Numbered from the stretch's first letter, positions 19,971-63,473 are shown. The stretch: 64,000 bases of DNA from an uncultured Acidobacteriota bacterium (GCA_963770995.1 CAVYRS010000001.1:502815-566814), one strand, 5' to 3'. The notes: generated by a model not told the origin, from the sequence alone. Numbers and translations: made by a program.

Positions 19971-20024
19971 GTAGCGCGGGCCTTTCAGGCCCGCGTCGGC
20001 GGCCCTGAGAGGGCCGCCCTACGA
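19971..20024. repeat. double GC-rich hairpin element flanked by GTAG...CTAC (palindrome family variant); possible terminator
   Basis: CGCGGGCC-TTTCA-GGCCCGCG (19975-19995) and GGCGGCCC-TGAGA-GGGCCGCC (19998-20018). Outer TCGTAG/CTACGA flanks. There is no T-run. Confidence 0.7.
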
Positions 20025-20039
20025 CTAAGGAGCGGGCCG

Positions 20040-20999
20040 ATGCATCATCGCTCTTTCCACCTCGCCTGGCTCGTCGCCGCCCTCGTCGCCATCGGCACGG
20101 CTACGCCGACGAGCCAATCGAAGAAACCGATCCCACGCACCACCGACGGCCGTCCGGATCTCCAGGGCACCTGGGACTTCGCGCAGCTGACCCCGTTGGA
20201 ACGGCCCTCCGAGTTCAAGGACAAGGATTCGATCACCGAAGAAGAGGCGGAAGAATTCGCGCAGCGGCGCATCGAGACCAGCAATAAGGATCGCCGCGAC
20301 GGTGGCGCCGCAGCCGACGTCGAACGCGCCTACAACGACTTCTGGTGGGACTTCGGGACACGCATCGCCAAGCAGCGATCGCTCGTCGTGGATCCCCCGG
20401 ACGGCCGCATCCCGCCGCTCACCGACGATGCGCGCGAGCGCAACGCGCAGCGCCGCGTGCTCTACGAGAACCCCGAAGAGCGGCCGCTGCCCGAACGCTG
20501 CATCCTCGGTTTCAACTCCGGACCGCCGATGGTGCCGAGCGCGTACAACAACAACATGCAGCTCGTCCAAACGCCGCGGCACGTGATGATTCTCAACGAG
20601 ATGATCCACAGCGCCCGCGTCGTGGACATGAGCGGCCGCCCGCACATGCCCAAGTCGATGCGCTTTCTGACCGGCGACTCGATCGGACGGTGGGAAGGCG
20701 ACACGCTGGTGGTAGACACGACGAACTTCTCGAAGGAGCGGGCCTTCCGCGGTGCGAGCGCCAACATGCACCTCGTTGAGAAGTTCACGCGCGTCGATCG
20801 CGACACGCTCCGTTACGAGTTCACCGTGGACGATCCGTCGGTCTGGACGAAGAGCTGGACGGTGTCGATGCCGATGGCGCTCTCGAACGAACTGATGTTC
20901 GAGTACGCCTGCCACGAAGGCAATTACGCACTCGAAGGGGTCCTGAAAGGCGCGCGGTATCAGGAGAAGCAGCCCAAGTCCCAGGAAAAAGAAAAATAG
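20040..20999 (+). CDS. exported hypothetical protein
   Basis: 319 aa. AAGGAG lies 8 nt upstream. Signal peptide LAWLVAALVAIGTATP. Good GC3. I recognise no family. Confidence 0.7.
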   Translation: MHHRSFHLAWLVAALVAIGTATPTSQSKKPIPRTTDGRPDLQGTWDFAQLTPLERPSEFKDKDSITEEEAEEFAQRRIETSNKDRRDGGAAADVERAYNDFWWDFGTRIAKQRSLVVDPPDGRIPPLTDDARERNAQRRVLYENPEERPLPERCILGFNSGPPMVPSAYNNNMQLVQTPRHVMILNEMIHSARVVDMSGRPHMPKSMRFLTGDSIGRWEGDTLVVDTTNFSKERAFRGASANMHLVEKFTRVDRDTLRYEFTVDDPSVWTKSWTVSMPMALSNELMFEYACHEGNYALEGVLKGARYQEKQPKSQEKEK

Positions 21000-24215: not shown

Positions 24216-24283
24216 GAACTTAGAAGGGCTGCGACGCCGGCCTCGTTGTCCGTCTAACTTCTGAATTCTAACTTCTAACTTCC
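24214..24283. repeat. heptamer-array hairpin element (TAACTTC / GAAGTTA class) between convergent genes
   Basis: The right arm is TAACTTC-TGAATTC-TAACTTC-TAACTTC (24255-24282). The left arm AAGAACTTAGAAGG is shorter. The loop is GC-rich. Confidence 0.7.
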
Positions 24284-25620
24284 TACAGGAAGATCGCGCC
24301 GGCGACGACTCCCACGATCATCACGGCGACGGATAACAGCGCGACCATCCGGAATCGCTGTAGCGATCCGCCGAGCAGCATCATGCACGGCAGGCTGACC
24401 GCCGGCAGCACGACCAGCAGCGCCGCGGCCGGACCGTTGATGCCAGCCTGAATCAGCTCCAACGCCATCGGGATCTCAGACCAGGTGGAGATCATGAACA
24501 ACGTGCCGGCGATGGCCGACACCAGCACGCTGGGCAGGTTGTTGCCGAATGCCGATGGCAGCGTCTGAAACACCGCGGACGCAAGCACGCTCCACACCCA
24601 CAACGTCGGCACCAGGACCAGAGCGATGCGGCCGCTCGCGTACAGCCAGGATCCAATCAGCTGCGACGCCGTCTCGACCTTGCGGCCCGCCACGATCCGG
24701 TCAAAGTCCAGCAGCCCCAGGTAGAAGCGGCTGAAGGTCCGCCTAATGGTGGACCCCACGTACGGAGCTCGATTCACCTCGTACGTGGAGTCCGCAGCCT
24801 CCATAGCGTACGTGGGGTCCGGCTTTAGCCGGACCTTCACCCCCGCGTCCCATCGGTCGGCCACTCGAGAAATGAGATACGTGACCAGCACCGTGACGAC
24901 CACGCCGGCGACGACGCGCGTCACCGCGAACGGCACCGGCAGGAGCGCGAACGCCAGGACCAGCGTCGTGACGTTCAGCATGGGGGCGCCGACGACGAAC
25001 GAGAGCAGGAAGTTCGTGGAGGCACCGCGGCGGGCGAACGAGGGCGCCATCACCGACGAGCAGCAGGAGCAGAACGGCTGCGGCAGCGCAAACAGCGCGC
25101 CGAACAGCGAACCGGTGAAGCCGTCGCGGACGAAGTACGGCTTGAAGTACACGGGCAGGATTGTCAGCGCCAGCCCGGAAATCAGAATACCCAGCATCGT
25201 CGCGTGCCAGACGTTGAACAGGTAGCTGGTCGCCTGCGCGAACGGCCGCCACCATGCGGTCACGCCGAACGCGTGCAACCAGTCCATGTTGATGCGGCCG
25301 GACGCCATCGAGCGCGCCGCCGGCACGCCGCGATACGCGAACAGATCGATCACCAGCAGCGCCAGGATCGCAAACGTCAGCGGCTTGAGGTATCGCGCCG
25401 TGGGGGCGTCCTGCGCCTCGCGCATCCGCAGGCCGCGAAAGGACACGAGCATGCCGACGACGCCCGCCGCGAACAGTGGCACCTGCCACGGGTTGAACAC
25501 GTAGAACAGCGTGCGGACGGGATATGCGGCGAAGAGGAACCCGCGACGAAAATCGACGAGCGCCAGCAGGGCAACGCCCAGGCACACGACGAAGGCCATC
25601 GCCAACCGGCGGGCTGTCAC
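24283..25620 (-). CDS. permease of the UPF0718/DUF318 (ArsP-like) family, carrying an in-frame palindromic-element insertion
   Basis: 445 aa, polytopic. Signature: ALPQPFCSCCSSVMAPSFARRGAS. The central loop contains VRLKPDPTYAMEAADSTYEV, encoded by the repeat at 24782-24840. Confidence 0.85.
   Translation of the reverse strand: MTARRLAMAFVVCLGVALLALVDFRRGFLFAAYPVRTLFYVFNPWQVPLFAAGVVGMLVSFRGLRMREAQDAPTARYLKPLTFAILALLVIDLFAYRGVPAARSMASGRINMDWLHAFGVTAWWRPFAQATSYLFNVWHATMLGILISGLALTILPVYFKPYFVRDGFTGSLFGALFALPQPFCSCCSSVMAPSFARRGASTNFLLSFVVGAPMLNVTTLVLAFALLPVPFAVTRVVAGVVVTVLVTYLISRVADRWDAGVKVRLKPDPTYAMEAADSTYEVNRAPYVGSTIRRTFSRFYLGLLDFDRIVAGRKVETASQLIGSWLYASGRIALVLVPTLWVWSVLASAVFQTLPSAFGNNLPSVLVSAIAGTLFMISTWSEIPMALELIQAGINGPAAALLVVLPAVSLPCMMLLGGSLQRFRMVALLSVAVMIVGVVAGAIFL
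24782..24840. repeat. palindromic element (one intact copy plus one degenerate copy) in frame inside the permease ORF
   Basis: ACGTGGGGTCCGGCTTTAGCCGGACCTTCAC (24810-24840), preceded by the degenerate TACGTGGAGTCCGCAGCCTCCATAGCGT. Confidence 0.85.
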
Positions 25621-29386: not shown

Positions 29387-29405
29387 AGAACCTCCAGATC
29401 GATCA

Positions 29406-29475
29406 GCCACGAAAGCACGAAATCACGAAAATCATCCTGTACACATCACGTTTCGTGTTTTCGTGTTCTCGTGGC
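29406..29475. repeat. octamer-array hairpin element (CACGAAA class)
   Basis: GCCACGAAA-GCACGAAA-TCACGAAA ... GTTTCGTG-TTTTCGTG-TTCTCGTGGC. It lies between the MFS stop (29481) and the NHL start (29386) on the - strand. Confidence 0.9.
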
Positions 29476-29480
29476 AGATC

Positions 29481-30712
29481 CTAAACTCTCGCGGGCACTG
29501 CCGCACGCGCGGGCTCCGCATGCGGGTTCTTCGCCATGAACAGCGTCGCGAGCGCAACAATCGACACGCCGGCGGCAATGAAGAACGCCCACCGGTATTC
29601 GCCGGTGGCGACGTACACGCGCCCGCCGAGATACGGACCGAGGATCCCGGCGACGCCCCACGCCGTGAGCAGCAATCCGTAGTTGAAGCCGACGTTTTTC
29701 GTTCCGTAGAAGTCCGCGCTCGTGGACGCGTACACCGACAACTGCGTGCCGTAGCAGTAGTAGACGAGCGCGAGCAGCAGGTAGAAGAGGACGACATTCT
29801 CGCGCAGCAGGAAGAGCAGCGGCATCGTGGCGGTCGACACGAAGAGCAGAAGGCGGATCGTATTCAAGCGGCCCACGCGATCCGACATCCACCCCGACAG
29901 CACGCGGCCGACACGCTGCCGATGGCGCCGACGGTGATTGCATAGGCGGCAGCCGTCGCACCGTGCCCCGCAGCGCGCGCGAACGGCACGAGCTGGCTGA
30001 TCACCATCGTGCCCGCCGTCGTGCCCAGACAGTAGGCGACCCACAGCGCCCAGAACGTCTGCGTGCGCACCATATCCGACGCCATCATGTCCGCGCCGCC
30101 GCGAGCGGCCGCGCGAGCCATCGCCGGATCCCAGCCCTCCGGCCGGTATCCCGGTGGAGGGTTCTGCAGCAAGTACGTCGCGATCAGCGTCATCGCGAAG
30201 AACAGCAGCGCAAAAATCTGGAACGTGCTCCGCCAGCCGACCTGTTCGATCAACGACGAGGCGATCGGACCGAAAATCCCGGACCCCGCGCCATAGCCGC
30301 CGACCATCATCCCCACCACCAGGCCGCGCTTGTCCGGAAACCATTTCGCGCCGACCGAGGTCGGCACGACGTAGCCGAAGCCGCCGCCGATGCCCGAGAT
30401 GAACCCGGCGGTCACGAAGAACCAGGTCAGGGACTGGGTGTAGCTCGCGAGGAAGAAGCCGAGGCTGAACAGCGTGCCGCCGATCGCCGCCACGATGCGC
30501 GGGCCGCGCAGATCGTGAATGCGCCCGGCGAACACGTACCAACCGGCGACCATCGCAATGCCAATCGTCGTCACCCACGACGTCTGCGCGCGCGTCGAGC
30601 CGAACTCTTTTTCGAGCGGCAGCATGAACGCGCTCATCGCATAGAGCGTACCCAGGGTGATGTTCAGCATCACGCCGCCGACAACGGGGAGCGAGCGATT
30701 CGGCGTGTTCAT
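29481..30712 (-). pseudogene. MFS transporter (oxalate/formate antiporter-like) with one frameshift
   Basis: The N-terminal 270 aa lie in the frame of track ORF 29864..30745 (MNTPNRSLPVVGGVMLNITLGTLYAMSAF...AITVGAIGSV). The C-terminal 140 aa lie in the frame of ORF 29481..30779 (GRVLSGWMSDRVGRLNTIRLLLF...). The junction is consistent with a 1-nt deletion near 29909-29912. Confidence 0.8.
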
Positions 30713-31314
30713 CGGCTCGTCGGGGCCGCAACGTCCTTGCGCCACCAGGGGTTGCCGTAATTGCGATACGGCCCGCCATCCACCGACAGCGTCGTCGCCA
30801 CCTTGTAGTTGAGCGGCGACAGCAGGCGCAGCGCGTGCTTGATGCGAAGCGTCTTGCCGGCGTGGTTGAACGGCGAGCTCTCGAAGTAGATGTTGTAGTA
30901 GCCGCCCAGATCGCCGCCGATCGTGCCGATCTGCAAGTAGGTGAAGCCGCGGCTGTCGGTCGCCTGCCGCGCGAGCGCTTTCTGCTCCTTGTGGTACGCG
31001 ATCAGCTCACGAAGCTTGAAGGCGCCGCCGGGCCCGACGGCGTCCGTGTTCGCCTCGTAGAATCGCCCGTCGACCGGCTTGTAGACCGTTGTGCCGGTGA
31101 TGCGGCCCGCCGGACCGAGCGGCCCCTCGGGCACGTCCCACTCGAACGTCCACTTGCCGGGAAAGTACTCGTCGAAGTTGAACGGCGGCAGCGCGTCCTC
31201 GGATTTCGTCGGCCGGCCAAGATCGGGCATCTGGCCCTTCGGGAGCGGAGTCTGCGCAGCGAGCGCCCCAGCCGCCAGAACTACTCCCAGTGCCGGCAAC
31301 AATAGATCTGCCAC
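30709..31314 (-). CDS. exported hypothetical protein
   Basis: GTG 31314 gives M-ADLLLPALGVVLAAGALAAQTP (signal peptide). Its TGA overlaps the ATG of the MFS gene (ATGA at 30709-30712). The start codon lies within the terminal GCCACGAAG of a hairpin element. Confidence 0.65.
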   Translation of the reverse strand: MADLLLPALGVVLAAGALAAQTPLPKGQMPDLGRPTKSEDALPPFNFDEYFPGKWTFEWDVPEGPLGPAGRITGTTVYKPVDGRFYEANTDAVGPGGAFKLRELIAYHKEQKALARQATDSRGFTYLQIGTIGGDLGGYYNIYFESSPFNHAGKTLRIKHALRLLSPLNYKVATTLSVDGGPYRNYGNPWWRKDVAAPTSR

Positions 31315-31374
31315 GAAGACACGAAAACACGAAGAAGACTTCCTTGGGTTTCGTGCTTTCGTGATTTCGTGTCT
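31310..31374. repeat. octamer-array hairpin element (CACGAAG class)
   Basis: GCCACGAAG-ACACGAAA-ACACGAAG ... TTTCGTG-CTTTCGTG-ATTTCGTGTC. Confidence 0.9.
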
Positions 31375-31418
31375 GCTTCGAACGCCTCGGCTCATTGCGT
31401 GCTCCACGCCCCGGAAGT

Positions 31419-46962: not shown

Positions 46963-46965
46963 AAA

Positions 46966-47041: not shown

Positions 47042-47046
47042 CGGAA

Positions 47047-51477: not shown

Positions 51478-51482
51478 AATCG

Positions 51483-51609: not shown

Positions 51610-51617
51610 TTTGGTCG

Positions 51618-52187
51618 TCATCGCGCGAAATCGGCGATGAAACAGCCCACGGCCTGTGTGGTGGGTCGCGGAATCGGCTTGCCGGCCAGCACCGCCGTCA
51701 GCGCGTCGGCCAGATCGTGCGTCGTCGGCGCCGGCCTCTCGAGACCGAGATCCACGTAGCGATCGTCGATGCGGCCGAGGTACGCGACGCGACCGCCCGC
51801 AACAACGGCGGCTTCAGGTGTGACGGTCGCCTTGACGTACTTGACGAGTGCGAGCGCCGGATCGCGCAGCGCCTCGAACGAGCCGTCGTAGCCGAACGCC
51901 GCCATGTGCTCGCGAATCGCCGCGGCCTGCTCCGACGGATTGGGATAGACGAGGCGAAACACCACGCCTTGTCGCGCGAACGTGGACACGATGCGGCGCA
52001 CTTCCGGCGCGTAGCGGTTCGAGATGGGGCAATCGGTGCTCGTGAACAGGAACACGATCGCCTTGGTCCCGGCCGGCGCGGCGAGCGCGTCGACGGCTGC
52101 CCCGTCGATCGTCAGCACGCGCACCTCGGAGGCTCCGTGGACGGTTGCCGACAGCAGCAGGCAGACCAGCGTACATCTGAGAATCAC
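51618..52187 (-). CDS. thioredoxin-fold (redoxin/AhpC-TSA-like) exported protein, single-Cys active-site variant (start uncertain)
   Basis: IVFLFTSTDCPISNRYAPEV...; C-terminal TTQAVGCFI. GTG 52187 chosen; the track ORF extends to 52256. Confidence 0.7.
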   Translation of the reverse strand: MILRCTLVCLLLSATVHGASEVRVLTIDGAAVDALAAPAGTKAIVFLFTSTDCPISNRYAPEVRRIVSTFARQGVVFRLVYPNPSEQAAAIREHMAAFGYDGSFEALRDPALALVKYVKATVTPEAAVVAGGRVAYLGRIDDRYVDLGLERPAPTTHDLADALTAVLAGKPIPRPTTQAVGCFIADFAR

Positions 52188-52294
52188 GGTCGAAGCCAAG
52201 ATAGCACGAACAAAAAAGGGCTGAGGCGTTTCCACCCCAGCCCTTCGACGAACCACGAACGACGAACGAAGGTCGAAGACCTACGAACGTCGCC

Positions 52295-55200
52295 TTACCA
52301 GTTGACGACCGCCGCCAAACGAAGCAGACGGCCCTGGATGATGCTGCCCGGCAGCAGGTAGCTGCCGCTCGACCCGTTGACCGCCGTCGGCGTCGCGCCG
52401 ACCCCCGTCAACGTGTAGGTAGTCGACCGAGCGGTGAAGAAGTCGCTCGAGTTCAACGCGTTGAACACGTCGACCTTCGGGTCGATCCGGAAGCGGCCGA
52501 CGGTAATGCGCTTCGAGACCGACAGGTCGAGCTGATTCAGCCGCGGCGTGAGCAACGTATTCGGCGCGTCCAGCGGGACGGTCAGCGTGGACAGCGCACC
52601 CGGTGCGATGAGCGCGCCGACGACGCAGCCCTGCGACGCCGAATTGCCCGGGCACGCCGTGTACCGCGTCGCCGCCGTCACGGTCAGCTGGCTGGCGAGC
52701 CCGCTGATGTTCGCGAAGTTCGGCGCGCCGGCGCCGCCCGCGGTCAGCGCGCTGGTCCCGAGGACGTAACCCGGCAGCCCCTGATACGCGCCGGCGAAGA
52801 CCAGCCCGTACCAGGGCAGCGGAACCATCCCGACGAGCTTGATGCCCGTCCGCCATGGAATCCCGCTGTTCTCCTGATCGCAGTAATTGGCGCCGCCGAT
52901 TCTGATCAGGAAGTTCGGATTCGAGGCGGCCGCCGTGCAGGTGTAGGCGATCGTCCGCTCGGTCCCGAATCCGCCCGAGAGGCGCGCGCCGCGCGGCAGC
53001 CGCGCGTTGAAGCCCATCTCGAACGAGTTGTACGTCTGCTTCAGTCCCGGATCGTTGGTGTCGATGTTCTTCGCCGCGAGGGTGCCGACCGCCGCGCTGG
53101 CGACGTCGAACACCGTGATCGGCGTTCCGTCGATGGGGCTGAACACCGTGACCGGTCGATAGCTGGCGTTGGTCACGGTCCCGTCGGCGTTGAGGGTGCC
53201 GGGCCGGTTGACGTTGTTCCGCTCCATGAAACCCTTGCTCACGTTGTGGAACCAGTCGAACGACACTGAGACGCCTTGGAACAGCTCGCGCGTGATGCCG
53301 GTGTTGCCCTGCAGCACGTACGGGCGCGTCAAGCCGGGATCGGGCTCCGCCAGCGAGACCGTCCCGAAGTTCGACGGGAGGCTGGCGAAGTTGATCTCGC
53401 AGGTCGGGTCGGTCGCGAAGGCGCAGCCCCGCGCGCCCTGCGCGACGTCGTCGAGGTTCTTGTCGGTCCACGGAAGCGTCGCATTGATGATGTTGCCGGC
53501 GCCCGGATCGTAGAGCTCGGCCAACGTCGTCGTGGCCGCCGCCATGAACTTGTTGAAGCCGAACTTCAGCGCGGTCTTGCCGTTGCCCTGCAGGTCGTAG
53601 ACCACTCCGGTGCGCGGCGAGAAGCTCTTCCAGATCGGCATCTGCTTGTCGCCGTAGGCCGGAATGTTGGCGAAGCGCCCCGACTGCGCGGGCTGTCCGT
53701 CAACTTGTTCGTTGACATATTCCCACCGGCCGCCGTACGTCAACGTCAGGCGATTGAGCGTCCAGATGTCCTGCGCGAAGATGCCGAGGCTGGCGTTCAG
53801 GCGATCCCGCCACCGGGCCGGCGTCGCGAACACGGTCACGGTTTGCGGGGTCTCGACGCCGTTGACCTGCACGTAGTTCTGATACAGATCCCCGTTCGCG
53901 TAGGACGCTCGGTTGAACGGACCCCACGAATCCTGGAATCCGACTTTGACGCTGTGGGTGCCGGTGACGTAGGTTGCCGACGCCTGCGCGTTGTAGCGAT
54001 CGGGATAGACGTTGTTCTGGAGGGCCGACGCCTTCCAGGTGAGGCCCGCGCCGGCGTCGACGTGGCGCGCGTTCGAGAACCATTCCGGCGAGCCATACGG
54101 CTTCTCGATGCCCGGTTGATAGAGGTTGTTGTAGCGCTCGATGTTGCCGGAATACCCGCCCTCGATGAGCAGCCGGCTGCTGACGGTCGACGTCCACTTG
54201 ACGCTGTTCGTCGTATACAACGGCGAATTCCAGAGAACCGACGACGTCGTCTGATCGTCGCCGGGCGCCATCGCCGCGCCGCGATCTTTGAGGACGCGGT
54301 CGTAGTACCCCGACAGCTTGTTCCGCGGCGAGATCTGCCACGTGAGGCGGCCGAGGTAGCTGTACTGGTGCTGCGGGTCGACGCCCTGCGGACAGAGCGC
54401 GCCGCCGCGGCCGGCCAGAGCCGCCTGGCACCGCTGAATGCCGGCCGGCGTGCCGTCGGAAACGAGCGTGTTCGCGATTGGCTTGTTCACCGTGAAGAGC
54501 CGGAACGACGCGAAGAACCACATCTTGTCTTTCTTCAGCGGTCCGCCCTGCGTGAAGTTGGTGTCGTTGTAGGTTCCGATCTTGTCGACCGTCCGGACCC
54601 CTAGCGACTCCAGCTTGGGTGTCAGGTTGTTGCTCTGCATCTTGCTGCTCTCGTAGCCCTCGAACAGCGATCCGCTGAACCGGTTGCCGCCTTCCTTCGG
54701 CACCAGGTTGATCTTGACGCCCCCGGTCGGCGAATCGACCGTGCCGCCACCCGTCTGGTAGACCATTTCCTGGTTCGCGCCTTCGTTCAGATAGCTCTGG
54801 ATGGCGCCGTCGCCCTGCAGCCCGTTCATGATCATGCCGTCGATCGTCACGGTCGTCTGCGCGGCGCCGAGGCCGTGCACCGTGAAGTAGGTCTGCTGCA
54901 TCGCCTGCGATCCGCCGACGTCGGGCGCGGTCAACGACACGCCCACGACGAGCTGGCCGACCGATTGAATCGTGTGCGCCGACGGGACCGCGTCGAGCAC
55001 GTCGCGCGACAGGACCTGTGCCTTGATGTTGGTCTGCACGTCGACCACCGGAGATTCGCCGGACACCGTCACGGTTTCCTCGACCGTGCCGACCTTCAAA
55101 TCGCCGTTGATCGTGGACGTGAAGTTCGACGGCAATTCGATCGCGTCTTTCTTCACACTGGAGAATCCGGGGAGCGAGAAGGTAAGGGAGTAAATGCCGG

Positions 55201-55417
55201 GCCGGAGGTTTTCAATCCTGTACGCCCCGTTCGAGTCGGTGGTGACCGACCGCACCCTTTCGATGAGCGCGTCGCTAGCGGCTTCCACGGTCACGCCCGG
55301 AAGCACGGCGCCGGTGGTGTCCTTGACCACGCCGGCGAACGCGCTCTGTGCGCGGGCGGTCGTCGGCCACGCCAGCAGACACGCTAGCGCAAATACCGAC
55401 AGCAGTAGTCTTCTCAT
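52295..55417 (-). CDS. TonB-dependent receptor-like outer-membrane barrel with CarboxypepD_reg domain
   Basis: 1040 aa. Signal peptide, then GVVKDTTGAVLPGVTVEAASDALIERVRSVTTDSNGAYRIENLRPGIYSLTF. C-terminal ...LRLAAVVNW. GGAGGA upstream. Confidence 0.9.
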   Translation of the reverse strand: MRRLLLSVFALACLLAWPTTARAQSAFAGVVKDTTGAVLPGVTVEAASDALIERVRSVTTDSNGAYRIENLRPGIYSLTFSLPGFSSVKKDAIELPSNFTSTINGDLKVGTVEETVTVSGESPVVDVQTNIKAQVLSRDVLDAVPSAHTIQSVGQLVVGVSLTAPDVGGSQAMQQTYFTVHGLGAAQTTVTIDGMIMNGLQGDGAIQSYLNEGANQEMVYQTGGGTVDSPTGGVKINLVPKEGGNRFSGSLFEGYESSKMQSNNLTPKLESLGVRTVDKIGTYNDTNFTQGGPLKKDKMWFFASFRLFTVNKPIANTLVSDGTPAGIQRCQAALAGRGGALCPQGVDPQHQYSYLGRLTWQISPRNKLSGYYDRVLKDRGAAMAPGDDQTTSSVLWNSPLYTTNSVKWTSTVSSRLLIEGGYSGNIERYNNLYQPGIEKPYGSPEWFSNARHVDAGAGLTWKASALQNNVYPDRYNAQASATYVTGTHSVKVGFQDSWGPFNRASYANGDLYQNYVQVNGVETPQTVTVFATPARWRDRLNASLGIFAQDIWTLNRLTLTYGGRWEYVNEQVDGQPAQSGRFANIPAYGDKQMPIWKSFSPRTGVVYDLQGNGKTALKFGFNKFMAAATTTLAELYDPGAGNIINATLPWTDKNLDDVAQGARGCAFATDPTCEINFASLPSNFGTVSLAEPDPGLTRPYVLQGNTGITRELFQGVSVSFDWFHNVSKGFMERNNVNRPGTLNADGTVTNASYRPVTVFSPIDGTPITVFDVASAAVGTLAAKNIDTNDPGLKQTYNSFEMGFNARLPRGARLSGGFGTERTIAYTCTAAASNPNFLIRIGGANYCDQENSGIPWRTGIKLVGMVPLPWYGLVFAGAYQGLPGYVLGTSALTAGGAGAPNFANISGLASQLTVTAATRYTACPGNSASQGCVVGALIAPGALSTLTVPLDAPNTLLTPRLNQLDLSVSKRITVGRFRIDPKVDVFNALNSSDFFTARSTTYTLTGVGATPTAVNGSSGSYLLPGSIIQGRLLRLAAVVNW

Positions 55418-55531: not shown

Positions 55532-57574
55532 TTACGGAAACTTGGATCCGGGCATGCGGTAGGGTCGCCCCTCTTCATACATCTGCAATCGCTCCCGGAA
55601 GCGGGCCGCCACCTCGTGCGCCCCCGCCGCCGCCGCCGTGTCTACCCCAGCCCTGGCGGTTTTCACGGCTTCGGTGAAGCGTCCGGCAGCGGCATACGCC
55701 GCCGCCAGCGCGTCGAGCGATGCGACATCGCGTCCCTCGGTGACACTCACCGCCCGTTCTCCCAGCGAGATCGCTTCGGCGGCGTTGCGAAGGGCGGGAT
55801 CGGCAGCGGTCGCCCGGATCCAGGCCAGCCCGGCCAGCGCCGGCGCGAAATCGGGTGTCAGCGTCAGCGCGCTCCTGAGCACACCCATGGCCTCGGCCGT
55901 TCGTCCCTGCGCCGACAACAGAAGGCCGAGATTCGCGCGCGCCTGGACGTTGTCCGGACGCAAGGCGATGGCTCGGCGATAGTGCTCCAGAGCCGGCTCC
56001 GTGCGTCCGAGCATGTGAAGCACGGCCCCCAGATTGTTGTGCGCCTGCGCGTAGTCGGGGTCGATGCCGAGCGCGGCGTCGAATGCCAACACGGCTTGTT
56101 CGCGCAACCCGCGCACCGACAACGCGATTCCGAGGTTGTAGTGCGTCTGCGCGGAGCGCGGATCGAGCCTGAGCGACTCGCTGTATTCGGCAATCGCCTC
56201 GTCGTACTGCCCGCCCTCGAGGTACAGATTCGCGACCGCGTCGTGGCGCAGCGGATCGTCGGGCGCATTGCGCAGGAGTTTGGAGTACGCGGCGAGATCG
56301 TCGGCACGCGCCTTACTGCGAACGTCCGTAGCCAGGCGCTGATGATCTGCGCCGGTCCGCGCTGCCACCTGCAGCCACAGATCGCCCATTTCGTCGGTCG
56401 TGTTCTGCCCCCACACGACGCGCACCGGCGGCTGATGCGGATTGCGCACGTTCTCGGCGGAGTTGTCGTAGGTGTAGCGCATTGCAACCGTGGTCCCCTT
56501 GGGCAAGGCGATCGGCGACGCGAAGCGGTAGACGTCCTGCCACCGGAAATCCCAGTCGTCGATGGCGATGAGCGGCCGCGTGGACCCGTCGGGCAGGGTC
56601 GCGTTCGCCTCCATGCGGCGCGCCAGGTTGTGCGCGTGCGGCTGCACGGCCAGCACGTCGACGTCGACGGGCAGCGCGTACCGATCGGTGATGACGTGCG
56701 CGCGATCGCCGGCGGGAACGTCGATTGTCTCGCTGCCGAGACGAAGGCCGACCGGCGTGCGTGTAGGCGGCGCGTCCGTCAAGAACAGCCCGATAGTGGG
56801 CTGGACCGGCTCGGGCTTCCCGGTCGGTTGCAGGTGCAGCTGGACGACGAGGTCGCTTCCCGGATCGAGCCGCCATTGCATGCCGTCAGGCGACGCGTGC
56901 GGCGCCTGACCCGGGGTCCAGCCGAGGAGTTGCCCTTCCGGATAGCGCGCCTCGACCACCATGCTTCCCGTGTATCCCGGCTCGGCGTCGCGGCGATCGA
57001 GCTGGCGCGACGACTGTGTTCGATCGATCCCAAGGTTCGCGTGGTGCACGACCCGGGCGTTGCCCGGCTGGAACTCAATCGCGCGCACGTAGCGGGGCGA
57101 GGTGAGTGGAATCGGAATCACGAACGTGCGGAACACATCGGGTCCATCCGCGCGCACGGTATACGCCTCGGCCATGCGGACGACGAGGTCGGGCGTGCCG
57201 AGCTGCCAGCCATCGGCGAATCTCGGGGGCGGCGAGAGGTCGGAGTGATCGCCTTCGACGGCGCCGGCGGCAATCCAGCGCTGCAATGTGTCGAGCTCGG
57301 CATCTGAGAGTCGCCGTTCGTTTTGAAAGTTACCCTTTCCCGCCACGGGCTTCCACGGCGGCATCACACGCCGCGCGGTCACCGCCGCAATCTGCGTCAG
57401 CCGCCTCTTCACATCGTCATACGTGAGCAGGCTGAAGGGACCGATCTCGCCGGGGCGATGGCAGTTCGCGCAGCGGGACCAGATGATCGGTGCGATGTTT
57501 TTGGTGAACGTGAGGCGCGGTTGAGCCGACACAGAGGGGACGGAGAACACGGAGACAAACAGCCACAGAGACAC
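55532..57574 (-). CDS. haem-c/PHM-like copper monooxygenase-fold + C-terminal TPR protein (intact paralogue; start uncertain, GTG 57574 proposed)
   Basis: WSRCANCHRPGE (CxxCH), VVHHANLG, VVQLHLQP, QPHAHNLA, WDFRWQ, NTTDEMGDLWLQV, then about 7 TPR units. The hydrophobic signal segment SLWLFVSVFSVPSVSAQP is encoded by a repeat arm. The track ORF 5' extension to 57994 crosses repeats. Confidence 0.75.
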   Translation of the reverse strand: MSLWLFVSVFSVPSVSAQPRLTFTKNIAPIIWSRCANCHRPGEIGPFSLLTYDDVKRRLTQIAAVTARRVMPPWKPVAGKGNFQNERRLSDAELDTLQRWIAAGAVEGDHSDLSPPPRFADGWQLGTPDLVVRMAEAYTVRADGPDVFRTFVIPIPLTSPRYVRAIEFQPGNARVVHHANLGIDRTQSSRQLDRRDAEPGYTGSMVVEARYPEGQLLGWTPGQAPHASPDGMQWRLDPGSDLVVQLHLQPTGKPEPVQPTIGLFLTDAPPTRTPVGLRLGSETIDVPAGDRAHVITDRYALPVDVDVLAVQPHAHNLARRMEANATLPDGSTRPLIAIDDWDFRWQDVYRFASPIALPKGTTVAMRYTYDNSAENVRNPHQPPVRVVWGQNTTDEMGDLWLQVAARTGADHQRLATDVRSKARADDLAAYSKLLRNAPDDPLRHDAVANLYLEGGQYDEAIAEYSESLRLDPRSAQTHYNLGIALSVRGLREQAVLAFDAALGIDPDYAQAHNNLGAVLHMLGRTEPALEHYRRAIALRPDNVQARANLGLLLSAQGRTAEAMGVLRSALTLTPDFAPALAGLAWIRATAADPALRNAAEAISLGERAVSVTEGRDVASLDALAAAYAAAGRFTEAVKTARAGVDTAAAAGAHEVAARFRERLQMYEEGRPYRMPGSKFP

Positions 57575-57859
57575 GGAGACACAGAGGGGCGCGCCGCAGG
57601 AGATTCGGCGGGAGCGCCGCGATGCGGCGCACTGTGGCCGAACCGATCGGAAACGTGAACCTGGAACATCCGAGAGGTTCACGTTTCCGGTCGGTTCGAC
57701 CACAGCGCCCGGCCTGCTCCGCAGGCCGTCCCGCCGAACTGCGAGCGCGCCTCGCGTTCCGCGCCACCCGAACTCTCTTGTTTCCACGCTGTCTTCTCTG
57801 TGTCTCTGTGTCTCCGTGGCTGAATCACTCCGTGAGCTCTGCTTCCTCCGTGTCCTCCG
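57528..57859. repeat. nested composite inverted repeat in a divergent 5' region
   Basis: The outer arms are built of ACACAGAG/ACACGGAG units (57528-57589) and their inverse CTCTGTGT/CTCCGTG units (57775-57859). The inner 25-bp inverted repeat is CCGAACCGATCGGAAACGTGAACCT / AGGTTCACGTTTCCGGTCGGTTCGA (~57638-57700), with 1 mismatch. Confidence 0.8.
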
Positions 57860-57937
57860 CGCTGGTTTAGCATAGCGCTGTTGCCGCCCAAGAAAGTCGT
57901 TCGACCGCTCGCGCTGGAAACCCGCGTCGATCGCCCG

Positions 57938-60187
57938 ATGCTGCTGCCGGCGGTCGCGATCTTCGCGATCGCGTTCGGCATCCGGCTCGTGCACGTGTTG
58001 CAGATTCGATCCGCGCCGTTCTTCTCCGTCCTGATGGGCGACTCCCGCGGGTACGACGAGTGGGCACAGCGGATCGCGGCCGGCGACTGGTGGGGGACGG
58101 AGGTCTTCTATCAGGCGCCGCTGTATCCGTACTTCCTCGGCGTTCTGTACTCGGTCGCGGGCCGGTCGCTGCTGCTCGTGCGGCTCGTCCAGGCGGCGAT
58201 CGGGTCGGCGTCGTGCGTGCTGGTCGCCCTCGCCGCCGCGCGATTGATCTCGCGCCGCGCGGGCATTGCAGCCGGACTGATCCTGGCGTTGTACGCGCCC
58301 GCGATTTTCTTCGACGGTCTGCTGCAGAAGTCGGTGCTCGACGTGTTCTTCGTCAGCCTCGCGCTGTTATTGATCGCCCGGATCGAGACGGTCCGCCTAA
58401 AGGCGGACCCCACGTACGAGAAAAGGCCGGTAGGTGGGGTCCGGCTTCAGCCGGACCTACATTGGCTCTTGCTCGGCCTCGCGATCGGCGGGCTGAGCCT
58501 GACGCGCGAAAACGCGCTCGTCTTCGTCGTCGTTCTGCTCGCGTGGGCGCTGATGCGTTCATGGCCTTTGCGGTCTCCGCGGTCTTTGCGTTCACCTGCT
58601 GCGCTCCTCCTGGGCCTCGCGCTGGTTCTCGTTCCAGTCGCGACGCGCAACACGCTCGTCGGCGGCGGCTTCTTCATCACGACGTCGCAGTTCGGCCCCA
58701 ACTTCTACATCGGCAACAACTCGAAAGCAGACGGGACGTACGCCTCGCTGCGCTTCGGGCGAGGCGCGCCGGAATACGAACGGCAGGACGCCACCGAGCT
58801 CGCCGAGCTCTCGTTGGGGCACCGGCTCCCGCCTGGAGAGGTGTCGAGCTACTGGACCGATCGCGCGCTGCAGTACATCACCTCACAACCGGGCGCGTGG
58901 GCACGGCTGATGGCGAGGAAGGCCGCGCTGCTGGTAAACCGGGCGGAAATGGTGGACACCGAAGATCAGGCGACCCACGCCGAGTGGTCGCTGCCGCTCC
59001 GCCTGCTCGGGCCCGTGGCGCATTTCGGCGTGCTCGTTCCACTCGCGATGCTCGGCATCGTCGCGACGTGGCCCCAGCGATCGCGGCTCGGTGTCCTGCT
59101 CGCCCTGCTGGTCGTCTACGCCGCGAGCGTGGTGATGTTCTACGTCTTCGCGCGGTATCGATATCCGCTGGTGCCGATGCTGATCGTGTTTGCGGCCGTC
59201 GCGCTCGTCGAATCACCGCGATTCGCGCGATCGCTCACGAAGGGCTCTACCACGGAGGACACGGCCACAAACGGAGGACACAGAAAACCAAAGGATTCCG
59301 TGCCCGCCGTTCGCCACAGTGCCCTCCGTGGTGAAGCCGTGTGGACGGTCGTGGCGATTGTCGGGACCGCGGTCCTGACCAATTGGCCGCTGCTGTCGAC
59401 GAACAACATGCGCGCGGTCACCGAGAACAATCTCGCCGCCGCGTTGCAGGCCACCGGCCGCCTCGACGAGGCCGAAGCACACTATCGCCGCGCCGTCGAT
59501 TTTCGTCCCGACTACGCGCCCGCCTACAGCAACCTCGGAACCGTGCAGCGCGCGCGCGGGCGGCGCGCTGACTCCATCGCCTCGTACGAGCAGGCGCTGC
59601 GCCTGCAGCCTGATTATCCAGACGCGCACTACAACCTCGCCAACGCGCTCACGGACGACGGGCGATCCGCGGAGGCGATCCAGCACTTTCAGATCGCGTT
59701 GCGGTCCGTGCCCGGATCAGCCGAGGTGCACAACAACCTTGGCATCGCGCTCGCGTCGAGCGGGAAACGCGACGAGGCGATCGCGGAATTCGAAGCTGCC
59801 CTACGCGCCGATCCGGCGGCGGCGAAGGCGCATCGCAACCTCGGCGACGCGCTGCTGGCAGCCGGGCGCGGACCGGAAGCGCTGACCCACTTCAAACGCG
59901 CCACCGAACTGGCGCCAGACGAGGGCTCGTTCCACTACGACTACGGGAGCGTGCTGCTCGAGGCGGGACGTCCGCAGGACGCCGCGGCCGAATTCCGCGC
60001 CGCGCTGAAGTCGATGCCCCGCGCACCCGAGGTGCACAACAACCTGGGCATCGCGCTCGGATCGCTGGGGAAGCTGGACGAGGCGATCGAGCAGTTTCAG
60101 GAGGCGCTGAGCATCAAGCCGGACTTCGCTGATGCGCGCAGGAATTTGACAATGGCTGGCGAGGCACGAAAACGCAAAACACCCTAG
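57938..60187 (+). CDS. GT39/ArnT-like membrane glycosyltransferase fused to C-terminal TPR domain, with several repeat-derived in-frame segments
   Basis: ATG 57938. N-terminal polytopic part: FFSVLMGDSRGYDEWAQRIAAGDWWGTEVFYQAPLYPYFLGVLY. The C-terminus has about 7 TPR units (AHYRRAVDFRPDYAPAYSNLG...). In-frame repeat segments lie at 58389-58461, 58567-58593 and 59250-59331. Confidence 0.85.
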   Translation: MLLPAVAIFAIAFGIRLVHVLQIRSAPFFSVLMGDSRGYDEWAQRIAAGDWWGTEVFYQAPLYPYFLGVLYSVAGRSLLLVRLVQAAIGSASCVLVALAAARLISRRAGIAAGLILALYAPAIFFDGLLQKSVLDVFFVSLALLLIARIETVRLKADPTYEKRPVGGVRLQPDLHWLLLGLAIGGLSLTRENALVFVVVLLAWALMRSWPLRSPRSLRSPAALLLGLALVLVPVATRNTLVGGGFFITTSQFGPNFYIGNNSKADGTYASLRFGRGAPEYERQDATELAELSLGHRLPPGEVSSYWTDRALQYITSQPGAWARLMARKAALLVNRAEMVDTEDQATHAEWSLPLRLLGPVAHFGVLVPLAMLGIVATWPQRSRLGVLLALLVVYAASVVMFYVFARYRYPLVPMLIVFAAVALVESPRFARSLTKGSTTEDTATNGGHRKPKDSVPAVRHSALRGEAVWTVVAIVGTAVLTNWPLLSTNNMRAVTENNLAAALQATGRLDEAEAHYRRAVDFRPDYAPAYSNLGTVQRARGRRADSIASYEQALRLQPDYPDAHYNLANALTDDGRSAEAIQHFQIALRSVPGSAEVHNNLGIALASSGKRDEAIAEFEAALRADPAAAKAHRNLGDALLAAGRGPEALTHFKRATELAPDEGSFHYDYGSVLLEAGRPQDAAAEFRAALKSMPRAPEVHNNLGIALGSLGKLDEAIEQFQEALSIKPDFADARRNLTMAGEARKRKTP
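58389..58461. repeat. two palindromic-element copies in frame inside the glycosyltransferase ORF
   Basis: ACGGTCCGCCTAAAGGCGGACCCCACGTA (58389-58417) and TAGGTGGGGTCCGGCTTCAGCCGGACCTACA (58431-58461), translated TVRLKADPTYEKRPVGGVRLQPDLH. Confidence 0.9.
59250..59331. repeat. degenerate CACGGAGG-type hairpin element in frame in the linker between the GT39 and TPR domains
   Basis: CCACGGAGGACACGGCCACAAACGGAGGACACAG, loop, CCGTGCCCGCCGTTCGCCACAGTGCCCTCCGTGG. About 24 of 34 arm positions are complementary. Translated STTEDTATNGGHRKPKDSVPAVRHSALRGE. Confidence 0.75.
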
Positions 60188-60247
60188 AGTGCTTCACGAA
60201 CAAAGCACCCTAAGGTGCTGTTCGAGAAGAGCACTCTAGAGTGCTGG
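60184..60247. repeat. multi-hairpin element of alternating GTGCT / AGCAC blocks between convergent genes (candidate bidirectional terminator)
   Basis: CTAGAGTGCTTCACGAACAAAGCACCCTAAGGTGCTGTTCGAGAAGAGCACTCTAGAGTGCTGG. It contains the perfect palindrome AGCACTCTAGAGTGCT and two further GTGCT...AGCAC stems. Confidence 0.75.
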
Positions 60248-60255
60248 TCCAAGTC

Positions 60256-63207
60256 CTACCAGCGAACCCCCGTCCCGATCCCGATGATGCGCCCCTGCAC
60301 GATGCTGTTGGGGCGCAGGTAAGTCGCCGCCAGGACGTTGGTCGACACGTAGCTCACGACCGCATCCGAGTTGTTCAGGTTGAAGATCTCGAGCGTCGGG
60401 AGAATCGTCACGCGACCCGCTTTAAACGTCTTCGAGATCTTCAGGTCGAGCTGATTGATCCGCTCCGTGTACGTCGTGTCCTGATCGACGAGTTGCACGG
60501 TCAGCGTCGCCGGCTGGAACGTCGCCGGCAGGATGAACGCGCCGGCCGGGCAGGGCGCCGGGCAGTTGGCCGGATACCGCGTCGAGTTCCGCGTGATCGC
60601 CATGTTCATGCTGCTCGTGCTGCCCTGGACGTTCTGGAACGAGGCGCTGATGGTTACGCCGTAGGGCAGCGGATACGACCCCGCCAGCTTGAACTGCCTC
60701 CGGAATGGAAGCCCGTTCTCGCGGTCATCACAGAAACGCAGGGTGTTGGGATTGTCGGGCGCCGTGCAGGTGACGTCCTGCTGCCGCTCGAAGGTGAACC
60801 CGCCGAACAGATTCGAGCCGCGCCCCGGCCGCGCGCGGAACTCCATCGAGTACGCGTTGTAGATCCGCTTGCGGTCCGGATCGAATGTGTCGAGGTTCAA
60901 CGTGGGAGCCGCGGCCGCCGCAGCCGTCCGGCCGTACACCGTAATCGGCTCGCCGGTCAGCGGGTTGAACACGGCAAAGGGAGTGTAGTTCGGGTTCTGG
61001 ACCGGATCGCCGGTGGTCACCCAGCTCCGGTTGATGGTCGTCGTCAGGTTGTGGAAGCCGCCGTGGAACCAGCTGCCTGTTACGGAAAGCTGCGGCATCA
61101 CTTCATGCTGGAGCTCGAGGCCCTGCTCCACGTTCCAGGTCCGCGGATAGCCGCCGTACGTGTTCAGTGCCACGAACCCGAAATTCGACGGCAGCGCGCT
61201 GAAGTTGATCTCGCATCCAGGCAGGCCGTTCGTTCCGAAATTGCAGCCGCGGGTACCCTGCGCGATGTCGTCGCCGTTCACGTCGCGCCAGGCCAGAGCC
61301 GGCGACGTGGCCGTCGTGGCCCCGAGCGACCGGAGCCCGTTGTAATCCTCTGCGATACCGGTCGTCCGGGCGAGGTTGTATTTGTTGAGCGAGTACTTGA
61401 GCGCGGTCTTCGCGTTGCCGAACAGATCGTAGACAAGGCTCGAGCGAGGCGCCCAGTTCCGCCAGTTCGGCAGGTTTTCGATCCCCTCGAACCGCCGCTC
61501 GGGGACGAAACGGCCGGCCGCCGCGACGGCGGGGTCCACCTGCGCGTTGAGCGCCTCGTACCGGATCCCGGCGTTGATCGTCATCCGGTTCATCCGCCAC
61601 GAGTCCTGCGCGTAGATGCCGAGATCGTAGTTCAGACGTTCACCGTACGTGGAGAGCGGCGTGTTGCGTATGTAGACCGTATCAGGGACGGTGAAGGCCT
61701 TCCCCGTGCTGTTGCTTCGATACTGCTGCGTGAGATCGGCGTTCACGTCAACGGTGTGGTAGAACGTGCCCCACGTCCGCTGTACGCCTACCTTGAAGCT
61801 GTGCGATCCCGTGATGTAGGAGACCGACGCATTGACGGCGTACCGTATCGGACTTTGCGTGGTCTGCGTCGGCGCCGCGCCCTTGCGGCCGCCCAGGTCG
61901 AGCTCGACCCTCGGAGCGCCAGCGAACCACTCCGGCGTACCCCGCAAATGTCCGATCCCGGGCAGGTAGCTGTTCGTGTAGTTCTCGGTGTTGTTCGACC
62001 AGCCGGCTTCGAGCAGCAGGCGATTCGTGACTGGCGACTGCCACTTGGCCGACGCCGTGTGGTACGCCGGCGAGTACCAGACGGTTGCGGCCGTCTCGGG
62101 ATCGTACAGGGCCTGCATGTCGTGGCCGCGGAACTTGTCGACCTCGTCGAAGTAGGCCGAAAACTTGTTGCGGGGGCTGACCTGCCACGTCAGGCGGCCG
62201 TTGATGCTTTTGATGAACTGATCGTCGATGCCCTTGCTCCCGTCGTCGAAGAACGTGTCGGGAATGAAGTTGTTCACCGAGATGTAGCGGGCCGAGGTGA
62301 AGAACCACAACTTGTCCTTCTTGATAGGTCCGCCCTGCGCAAAGGTGTAGTCGACAATGCGATCCGTCGCGTTCCCGGTCGCCAGCCCCTTGTCCTTGTG
62401 CCGCTGCGTCAGGTTGTTGCCCTGCCACGTGCCGGGGCGATACGCCTGCTTGAAATCGCCGCTGAAGCGGTTGCCGCCTTCGCGGGGAATCATGTTCAGG
62501 CGCACGCCGCCTGCCTGGGTGTCCGCTCCGATACCGGAAGTCTGGTAGCTGACTTCCTGATTCATCGCGTCGTTGTAGTAGCTCTGGACCGCGCCGTCAG
62601 ACTGCAGACCGTTCACCATCATCCCGTCCACCAGGACCGTGGTGTTCGACGTCGTCATGCCGTGCGTCGACATGTAGGTCTGCTGCATCGCGCGCGCGCC
62701 GCCCGTATCGGGAAGGCTCAGACTGACTCCCACGATCAGCTGCCCGATCCCCTGGATGGTGCGCCCGGTCGGAATTGAATCGATCTGCTCGCGATTGAGC
62801 ACCTGCGTGTGGACAGCGGTCGTCACATCGACGATGGGCGATTGAGCGGAGACCGTCACCGACTCCTCGATCGCACCGACTTTCATGTCCGCGTTGATCG
62901 TGGCGGTGAATTCAGACGGCAGTACGACGTTCTCACGCCTGAAACTTTGGAACCCGACCAGCGTGAACGTCACCACGTAGGTGCCGGGCCGCAGGTCCAC
63001 GATCCGGTAAGCGCCCTGCCCATCGGTGATCACTTCGCGGCTCTTCTCGATGAGCACGTCGCTGGACGCTTCGACGCTCACGCCAGGCAGCACTGCTCCC
63101 GAGGTGTCCTTGGCGACGCCGACGATGGCGCTTTGGGCGTGCACGACGCCGGGCAACACCGCGAGCAGCAGCACCGCGAAGGGACATGCGAGTAGTCGTC
63201 TGCTCAT
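60256..63207 (-). CDS. TonB-dependent receptor-like outer-membrane barrel with CarboxypepD_reg domain (paralogue of 52295..55417)
   Basis: 983 aa. GVAKDTSGAVLPGVSVEASSDVLIEKSREVITDGQGAYRIVDLRPGTYVVTF. C-terminal ...GIGTGVRW. AGGAGGA upstream. Confidence 0.9.
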   Translation of the reverse strand: MSRRLLACPFAVLLLAVLPGVVHAQSAIVGVAKDTSGAVLPGVSVEASSDVLIEKSREVITDGQGAYRIVDLRPGTYVVTFTLVGFQSFRRENVVLPSEFTATINADMKVGAIEESVTVSAQSPIVDVTTAVHTQVLNREQIDSIPTGRTIQGIGQLIVGVSLSLPDTGGARAMQQTYMSTHGMTTSNTTVLVDGMMVNGLQSDGAVQSYYNDAMNQEVSYQTSGIGADTQAGGVRLNMIPREGGNRFSGDFKQAYRPGTWQGNNLTQRHKDKGLATGNATDRIVDYTFAQGGPIKKDKLWFFTSARYISVNNFIPDTFFDDGSKGIDDQFIKSINGRLTWQVSPRNKFSAYFDEVDKFRGHDMQALYDPETAATVWYSPAYHTASAKWQSPVTNRLLLEAGWSNNTENYTNSYLPGIGHLRGTPEWFAGAPRVELDLGGRKGAAPTQTTQSPIRYAVNASVSYITGSHSFKVGVQRTWGTFYHTVDVNADLTQQYRSNSTGKAFTVPDTVYIRNTPLSTYGERLNYDLGIYAQDSWRMNRMTINAGIRYEALNAQVDPAVAAAGRFVPERRFEGIENLPNWRNWAPRSSLVYDLFGNAKTALKYSLNKYNLARTTGIAEDYNGLRSLGATTATSPALAWRDVNGDDIAQGTRGCNFGTNGLPGCEINFSALPSNFGFVALNTYGGYPRTWNVEQGLELQHEVMPQLSVTGSWFHGGFHNLTTTINRSWVTTGDPVQNPNYTPFAVFNPLTGEPITVYGRTAAAAAAPTLNLDTFDPDRKRIYNAYSMEFRARPGRGSNLFGGFTFERQQDVTCTAPDNPNTLRFCDDRENGLPFRRQFKLAGSYPLPYGVTISASFQNVQGSTSSMNMAITRNSTRYPANCPAPCPAGAFILPATFQPATLTVQLVDQDTTYTERINQLDLKISKTFKAGRVTILPTLEIFNLNNSDAVVSYVSTNVLAATYLRPNSIVQGRIIGIGTGVRW

Positions 63208-63385
63208 TACCGCGTCCTCCTTGGAGTCACGAATGATGGAATTGCAAGCTACTCGATGACATCAAGCGACGAATGAAGACGAAGGCTTACGAAATGTGAC
63301 AAACACTACGCTTACGGTTTCCTACGGTCAAGGGAATTTGCCCGCGACGGACACACGGCTTGTCACCGACCGGAAATTTGGATTC

Positions 63386-63473
63386 CGTAGGTCCGCCTAA
63401 AGGCGGACCCCACGTATTGCGTTTCTGCGCGTTCGCGAAACGTACGTGGGGTCCGGCTTTAGCCGGACCTTCA
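63386..63473. repeat. pair of palindromic elements flanking a small CGTTTC...GAAACG hairpin; overlaps the stop codon of the PTE-like gene
   Basis: CGTAGGTCCGCCTAAAGGCGGACCCCACGTA (63386-63416), TTGCGTTTCTGCGCGTTCGCGAAACG, TACGTGGGGTCCGGCTTTAGCCGGACCTTCA (63443-63473). The TGA at 63473-63471 lies within the last copy. Confidence 0.85.

Follow-up and report, generated by a model that had tools for sequence, protein, structure and literature searches.

Short palindromes recur through a 64,000-nucleotide stretch of an uncultured Acidobacteriota bacterium (GCA_963770995.1, CAVYRS010000001.1:502815-566814; hereafter the window). We conclude, with a probability of roughly 0.88, that they are GTRG-tagged repetitive extragenic palindromic (REP) elements, mostly inverted doublets of the kind termed REP doublets forming hairpins (REPINs), in a genome of the Vicinamibacterales (Acidobacteriota). 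We assign them to this class because a short tagged palindrome, set in inverted pairs with alternating subtypes, matches the published description of GTAG REPs, bacterial interspersed mosaic elements (BIMEs) and REPINs (PMC3733652). Four fates of the element are met within this one window, where copies lie between genes, are read through in frame, break a gene, or supply a stop codon; together these constitute a natural experiment on protein tolerance.

The core palindrome of the family is 20 nt long, GGTCCGSC-TTTA-GSCGGACC, and the full unit consists of (CGTAC)GTRG, this core and T(A/T)CA, with a perfect, G+C-rich stem of 8-12 bp and a 4-nt loop. Allowing up to two mismatches, GGTCCGSCNNNNGSCGGACC matches the window (G+C content 63-70%) 10 times, against an expectation of 0.60 from 100 dinucleotide-preserving shuffles, which yielded three at most. 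Every copy in the window carries GTGG or GTAG at one end, and most belong to inverted doublets. All of the copies listed in a preliminary description of this stretch are present in the sequence; that list missed one, at 24733-24764, and of the three copies it counted at 51483-51568 the first is degenerate, with two mismatches. The copies in the window are as follows.

24733-24764, minus strand: arm 2 of the permease doublet; core 24736-24755 (GGTCCGCCTAATGGTGGACC), one stem mismatch, GTGG tag on the right; read as YVGSTIRRTF.
24780-24797, plus strand: a third, partial REP head (CGTACGTGGAGTCCGCAG), within the permease doublet's spacer.
24807-24845, plus strand: arm 1 of the permease doublet; core 24816-24835, CGTACGTGG head; minus-strand reading GVKVRLKPDPTYA.
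45947-45972, unstranded: single 26-nt copy GTAGGTCCGGCTTTAGCCGGACCTAC with a perfect 12-bp stem; introduces a TAG stop and a +2 frameshift into a hydrolase gene.
51483-51568, unstranded: cluster of three copies; cores 51489-51508 (degenerate), 51511-51530 (perfect) and 51544-51563 (one mismatch).
58387-58418, minus strand: arm 1 of the glycosyltransferase doublet; core 58390-58409, GCC..GGC subtype; read as TVRLKADPTY.
58429-58461, plus strand: arm 2 of the glycosyltransferase doublet; core 58438-58457, GGC..GCC subtype, TTCA loop; read as GVRLQPDL.
63386-63416, minus strand: left arm of the intergenic doublet downstream of a phosphotriesterase (PTE)-like gene; core 63390-63409.
63441-63479, plus strand: core 63450-63469; the TTCA tail contains the TGA of the PTE-like gene (63471-63473, minus strand).

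The conserved unit is asymmetric and exceeds the palindrome, as seen in the direct-repeat families D9, D11 and D18, which share (CGTAC)GTGG-GGTCCGGCTTTAGCCGGACC-T(A/T)CA; the copies at 63441-63479 and 24807-24845 are 97% identical across 39 nt. Scanning the core against one genome per GTDB species returned at least 94 stretches, nearly all from Vicinamibacterales or Acidobacteriota metagenome-assembled genomes (MAGs), and the anatomy of the unit was determined on 145 copies pooled from the window and 94 related loci. A tag of GTGG, GTAG or GTGAG abuts the core in 124 of the 145, and does so on a single side only in 119; GTGG is the most common form, and GTGAG belongs to one lineage. When these 119 are turned to a common orientation by their tag, 98 have a TTTA loop and 21 a TTCA loop, and the side of the tag predicts the orientation of the loop in every case. 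Loop and stem variants had been proposed to covary within each copy; this is borne out for the stem, where GGC..GCC alternates with GCC..GGC and the variable pair 7/14 is complementary in 117/119 tagged copies (G-C in 70, C-G in 47), while TTTA and TAAA are one loop seen in two orientations. Half of the neighbouring pairs in the pooled set (14/28) are inverted with their tags facing inward, and the GCC..GGC subtype precedes GGC..GCC in 10 of these 14, including both of the window pairs that were counted. The folding energy of a single copy is -14.1 kcal/mol (z = -8.0), and each doublet in the window forms a single long hairpin, interrupted by two symmetric mismatches (z = -5.3 to -10.1). The consensus leaves four of the six reading frames open (VGSGFSRT, WGPALAGP, GPAKAGPHV and VRLKPDPTY), and the common TTCA loop variant opens a fifth (VRLQPD). 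An Rfam scan across the whole window returned no family match.

In related genomes a cognate transposase gene is associated with the unit. The preliminary description had suggested looking elsewhere in the genome for a REP-associated tyrosine transposase (RAYT), and a motif search over six-frame translations of the related loci recovered one, flanked by the same REP, in three related genomes. The three open reading frames (ORFs) encode 160-170 aa, with an HUH motif (MPDHVH) and a tyrosine motif (YIxNNPVRAGLV).

L012:4715-5263: RAYT ORF, matching NF047646 and Pfam Y1_Tnp.
L009:5178-5720: RAYT ORF, matching NF047646 and Pfam Y1_Tnp.
L094:4837-5439: RAYT ORF, matching NF047646 and Pfam Y1_Tnp.

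All three score 85-96 bits against the NCBIfam model NF047646 ('REP-associated tyrosine transposase', cutoff 80), and only 22-31 bits against the IS200 model (cutoff 55). REP copies with outward-facing tags lie on both sides of each gene, with two copies either side in L012. In the same locus the gene overlaps its own repeat, as the flanking REP at L012:4715-4745 encodes the last 11 codons of the ORF (...MDGPAEAGPHA). A profile search returned 2,902 relatives of these proteins, some of which bear the JGI name RayT.

The related loci all have a G+C content of 62-72%. The window has its 10 copies within 64 kb, and one MAG, DAINCF01, accounts for 11 or more of the 80 loci listed. A few taxonomic labels stand out. 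The MAG JAIEMQ01 (loci L009, L017 and L038), labelled Cyanobacteriota, carries the REP together with its RAYT and has the GTGAG tag, and six loci labelled Bifidobacteriaceae or Bifidobacterium (L040, L044, L055, L064, L066 and L075) carry the same REP. These labels look wrong, as the G+C content of 62-67% resembles that of the acidobacterial loci; real cross-phylum spread of the REP is a possible alternative.

One insertion in the window interrupts an alpha/beta-hydrolase gene.

45271-46457, minus strand: alpha/beta-hydrolase host gene, split by the REP copy at 45947-45972 into ORFs 45969-46457 and 45271-45885.

Both ORFs match alpha/beta-hydrolase families, and a perfect 28-nt palindrome lies between them. 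On the minus strand the GTAG tag supplies an in-frame TAG, and the downstream half of the gene continues in a different frame, as had been proposed for this copy. Deletion of the 26 nt in silico restores a single ORF of 386 aa, colinear with a neighbouring paralogue (E = 2e-45) and, with 86% identity over 385 aa, with the intact orthologue P0361 (387 aa), which was found when the N-terminal fragment served as the query of an exhaustive search; in both alignments the junction is gap-free. This copy is a clean, gene-breaking insertion, and probably a recent one.

Two further clusters in the window lie at gene boundaries. The intergenic doublet at 63386-63479 follows the PTE-like gene, whose protein matches its Pfam profile to position 297 of 298 and ends in ...FVPRG*. 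The last two codons and the stop (CGG GGC TGA) fall within the 39-nt unit shared with the permease copy, so that the repeat supplies the stop codon at a natural gene end; the proposal that this TGA belongs to a repeat thus stands. Two minus-strand genes enclose the triple cluster at 51483-51568, which is immediately upstream of what is likely the TTG start of the gene at 50101-51476; the long ORF running through the cluster is probably artefactual. Such placement would suit ordinary regulatory hairpins, namely intrinsic terminators or mRNA-stabilizing 3' hairpins that are local and immobile: both clusters sit between same-strand genes, just 3' of a stop codon, and the REPs of Escherichia coli act as elements of 3' untranslated regions. 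We nevertheless consider it improbable that the family is explained in this way, given that no T-run follows the hairpin at any REP copy in the window when the sequence is read directly, that unrelated loci carry units identical over up to 39 nt, that copies occur within ORFs, that a clean 26-nt insert breaks the hydrolase, and that the unit flanks a transposase gene. A regulatory side-effect of the extragenic copies is also compatible with mobile REP elements.

The distribution of copies relative to genes bears on a second alternative, raised by the preliminary description, which likened the behaviour of the repeat to that of Rickettsia palindromic elements (RPEs). A cluster was scored as coding-like if an open frame extended for at least 150 nt to both sides and third-position G+C was high on both. 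By this test 8 of the 99 evaluable clusters from the window and related loci are coding-like, against 1071 of 2200 random intervals (49%); depletion from coding sequence is thus approximately six-fold, and falls short of exclusion. Beyond the loci described below, the clusters that pass are single in-frame copies in other genomes, in genes for acetyl-CoA synthetase, NuoL, a class I tRNA synthetase, a class-III aminotransferase and, in two instances, SMC. The insert is spanned by Pfam domains in all of these proteins but NuoL, where the copy is positioned past the last matched domain. Every open frame is used among these coding copies (GPALAGP, VRLKPD, GPAKAGPH, GPPKGGPH, GSGFSRT and VRLQAD). 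In-frame copies that encode loop peptides in real proteins are what relatives of RPEs, as transposase-less palindromes specialized for coding sequence, would be expected to produce, and RPE-4 and RPE-6 have themselves been re-classified as short tagged REPs, of the CGTC type and without a transposase (PMC3733652). Yet the tag here is GTRG rather than the CGTC of RPE-4 and RPE-6, the unit measures 26-39 nt where RPE-1 measures 100-150 bp, and a RAYT accompanies it where the CGTC repeats have no associated transposase (PMC3733652); coding sequence, moreover, is depleted of copies rather than preferred. The resemblance therefore holds for behaviour and fails for kinship, and we rate descent from RPEs as slightly less probable still than purely regulatory hairpins.

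[quoted passage not shown] The copies are small, non-autonomous, palindromic and numerous, as MITEs are, but at 26-39 nt they fall far below typical MITE size and consist of one hairpin rather than of terminal repeats around a core. In addition, no target-site duplication is found at the hydrolase insert (GGTAACT|GTAGG..CCTAC|ACGCGG), and the associated gene is a Y1-type RAYT, not a DDE transposase.

Two membrane protein genes in the window contain in-frame doublets, the first of which encodes a permease.

24283-25599, minus strand: permease host gene (P0001), 438 aa, ArsP_1/YraQ-type; the REP doublet forms a disordered loop between helices 222-251 and 284-296.

The ArsP_1 match of the ORF covers residues 132-444. 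As the preliminary description stated, the repeat is in frame here (VRLKPDPTY), not as a single copy but as an inverted doublet with a partial third head in its spacer. The 120 best homologues were aligned, and among them the 15 nearest orthologues, whose mutual identity is 76-96% when the loop is left aside, share at one loop position the pattern VRLK[PA]D..Y and (Y)VGSGFSRT, separated by a variable spacer of 3-18 aa; in more distant orthologues the loop is unrelated and shorter, at 24 aa. The loop is 72 nt long in 10 of the 19 insert-free loci readable at the DNA level, and the insert-bearing loops all have lengths divisible by three, namely 129 nt (in the window), 120, 102 and 81 nt. Both arms remain recognizable at the DNA level, with place and orientation constant and with decay that differs by lineage. 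As the orthologues are related to one another, independent events in this gene are few. Arm 1 is identical over 32 nt between the window and L096, whose flanking gene is only 79.5% identical, and switches of stem subtype appear as coupled residue changes (SGFSRT against SAFRRT, VRLKPD against VRLKAD). This arm identity, along with the coupled changes, suggests more than neutral decay, and we offer it as a lead rather than as a result.

Other features of this loop were noted among the permease homologues. The flanking DNA of L095 and L096 is 91% identical, yet the stem subtypes of both arms are swapped between them and the spacers measure 39 and 17 nt. Inversion, re-insertion or conversion may account for the difference; in a comparison made with inversion of the REPIN in mind, the spacers are not each other's reverse complements. 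In the orthologue at L115:3400-4100, a REP doublet containing a stop was considered as a second disruptive case and set aside, since several further frameshifts run along the gene, which is either a pseudogene or the product of a low-quality, error-prone assembly. The 9-mer AGCCGGACC in the insert-free loop of L108 was likewise considered as a relic or target of the REP, and was judged uninformative as a single instance.

The second in-frame doublet lies in a gene for a glycosyltransferase.

57938-60187, plus strand: glycosyltransferase host gene (P0121), 749 aa, a PMT_2-type membrane protein fused to TPR repeats.

Both arms are read through in a loop between membrane helices, in keeping with the earlier proposal of two in-frame copies, and the reading TVRLKADPTY-EKRPVG-GVRLQPDL is flanked by two hydrophobic helices. 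Arm 2 tolerates only the stop-free TTCA variant because the consensus TTTA gives TAG in that frame, and the VRLQPD form is found in nearly all glycosyltransferase homologues that have a second arm. Surface loops had been anticipated for the inserts on predicted structures, and in AlphaFold2 models both fall in low-confidence coil between helices. The permease model has a mean predicted local distance difference test (pLDDT) score of 84.7 and a predicted template modelling (pTM) score of 0.82, with the insert modelled as coil at pLDDT below 50; the glycosyltransferase model (pLDDT 82.5, pTM 0.87) places a coil at residues 153-171, a block with pLDDT 56-63, between helices 131-152 and 172-189.

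Among 120 glycosyltransferase homologues this loop contains REP-derived peptides in 26, a TAExAExAEK...SLRSLRS-type sequence in 78 and other sequence in 12, and is short in four; the REP-type loops are scattered across a neighbour-joining ordering. The closest homologue and syntenic orthologue, P0122, has the SLRSLRS-type loop, encoded by a long palindrome with 9-nt periodicity, and so the one loop holds differing palindromic repeats in different genomes. In the syntenic orthologue at L121:4400-4560, the same loop holds a 9-nt-periodic palindrome (AEHAEIAEK..LRVQRVLRA). In both protein families, segments are nested exactly inside the REP loop, as SGF-LTAEASAKAV-SRT in permeases P0009 and P0013, and as VRL-PAFA..RRR-QPD in glycosyltransferases P0130, P0179 and P0212, which suggests that other elements have inserted into the REP hairpin loop. 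That the peptide segments are ancestral to their host proteins, and the DNA palindromes secondary, we regard as already refuted despite conservation of the permease segment in 15 orthologues, because the segment is missing from distant permease orthologues, whose loop is unrelated (the comparison proposed in the preliminary description, which favours insertion over ancestry), because the same 20-39 nt of DNA is noncoding elsewhere and is read in unrelated proteins in four different frames, and because the syntenic glycosyltransferase orthologue has a different palindrome at the same loop.

Taken as mobile REP elements, the copies suggest the following sequence of events. A RAYT, as a Y1/HUH tyrosine transposase of the IS200/IS605 type, would recognize the hairpin on single-stranded DNA, cut beside the GTRG tag, and copy or move the REP in trans. 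Most copies come to rest, or persist, between genes. With most frames of the unit open, inserts of a length divisible by three can be read through, survive in a flexible protein loop and be retained for long periods. Inserts of other lengths disrupt the gene, the hydrolase being an example, and a copy that lands at the end of a gene can supply its last codons and stop, as in the PTE-like gene. Several points weigh against this account. The RAYT gene is absent from the 64-kb window, and none of the best 120 of the 2,902 RAYT relatives lies on the source contig. We infer mobility from copy number, from identical units at unrelated sites and from one clean 26-nt insertion, and we infer translation of the REP peptides from intact reading frames and conservation. 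It must also be assumed that the old permease loop was deleted or replaced, and not merely extended, because loops of 81-129 nt are too short to hold a REPIN in addition to the old 72 nt.

A more speculative possibility, which we think unlikely but worth stating, is that the embedded hairpins are more than tolerated debris, being long kept within ORFs, and that particular loops of membrane proteins act as recurrent landing pads. The conservation of the arms while the spacer drifts, the coupled residue swaps that compensate stem changes, the sharing of one loop by at least two unrelated palindromic families, and the inserts nested in REP loops may reflect such a process. If true, insertion would be targeted to hairpins, and the embedded hairpin might have a function in mRNA or DNA. 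The permease and glycosyltransferase cases raise the questions of whether a hairpin can be selected within an ORF, and whether existing hairpins are targeted by hairpin repeats; what deserves following is how long coding copies are retained, along with the landing loop that different repeats share.

The window contains other repeats. A double hairpin at 19971-20024, which the preliminary description took for a GC-variant of the main family, belongs instead to a separate one, GTAG-CGCGGSCC-TTTCA-GGSCCGCG, single copies of which occur in related genomes (L018:4703, L053:7549, and L028:372 and 6447). A third type consists of an 8-nt-periodic CACGAAGN family, whose long hairpins are mismatched at each eighth base (z = -6.6 to -10.4) and occupy gene boundaries; where ORFs run through these hairpins, they encode HEDTKTRR- or LRVFVSSWL-type peptides, some beside apparent signal peptides.

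19971-20024, unstranded: intergenic inverted doublet of the second GTAG-tagged REP family, GTAG-CGCGGGCC-TTTCA-GGCCCGCG / GGCGGCCC-TGAGA-GGGCCGCC-CTAC.
17019-17096, 29400-29484, 31304-31382, 44197-44277 and 45196-45228: CACGAAGN-unit hairpins.
46966-47044, 51576-51614, 57556-57588 and 57791-57829: CACGAAGN-unit hairpins.

On a larger scale, a gene module is duplicated (50101-55417 and 55532-63207), with DNA blocks 71-76% identical (D1, D4, D7, D10 and D13); among its products are an outer-membrane protein of the CarboxypepD_reg/TonB type, roughly 1000 aa long, and a cytochrome-c/Cu-monooxygenase-like protein, one copy of which has TPR. Within an ORF region, at 6951-7067, a 39-nt sequence is repeated three times in tandem with 72% identity.

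The REP family described here extends the reach of RAYT-type REPs and REPINs to the Vicinamibacterales, an abundant and mostly uncultured soil group. It also explains a recurrent nuisance in the annotation of soil metagenomes, in that peptides such as VRLKPDPTY, GSGFSRT, GPAKAGP and WGPALAGP represent either spurious small ORFs or real loop inserts.

Among known systems, the REP/BIME elements of E. coli and their transposase TnpA-REP (RayT/YafM) share with this family the tagged hairpins, the alternation of subtypes in inverted pairs and a REP-flanked Y1 transposase. To our knowledge the E. coli REPs are described as strictly extragenic, and the present family differs in this respect, with about 8% of its clusters coding. 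RPE-1, RPE-4 and RPE-6 are similar as in-frame palindromes within genes for functional proteins, to which they add loop peptides while leaving the fold intact; RPEs differ in having a CGTC tag or units of 100-150 bp, in lacking an associated transposase and in being restricted to Rickettsia, and share no sequence similarity with the REP of the window. The closest likeness is to the RAYT-mobilized GTAG REPs and REPINs (Nunvar 2010, PMC2817692; Bertels & Rainey 2011, PMC3116915; PMC3733652), which likewise consist of a GT[A/G]G-tagged, G+C-rich palindrome, form long hairpins from inverted doublets, and alternate between two stem subtypes as in BIMEs. Those elements are also mostly extragenic and often directly 3' of genes, have a single RAYT between the same repeats (a 'REPtron'), and include a minority of in-frame intragenic copies, some at ORF ends. 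The survey of Di Nocera (2013; PMC3733652) described intragenic GTAG and CGTC REPs, mostly dimers coding for 20-30 aa, in hosts including tRNA synthetases and repair proteins, with some copies at ORF ends, and argued that the inserts occupy linkers or loops. It recorded GTAG REPs in Proteobacteria, Cyanobacteria, Chloroflexi and the PVC group, and its entry for Acidobacteria consists only of RAYT-like genes between long inverted repeats. In-frame intragenic GTAG REPs have therefore been known since 2013, and it is the acidobacterial family that is new: it differs from the surveyed GTAG REPs in its host phylum and in a tag that is mostly GTGG (GTGAG in one lineage) rather than GTAG, and its unit sequence, which has no Rfam match, is new to us. 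Beyond that survey (PMC3733652), the present family adds a coding doublet kept in orthologues whose identity is no more than 76-96%, and a loop in the glycosyltransferase at which different homologues have different palindromic repeats.

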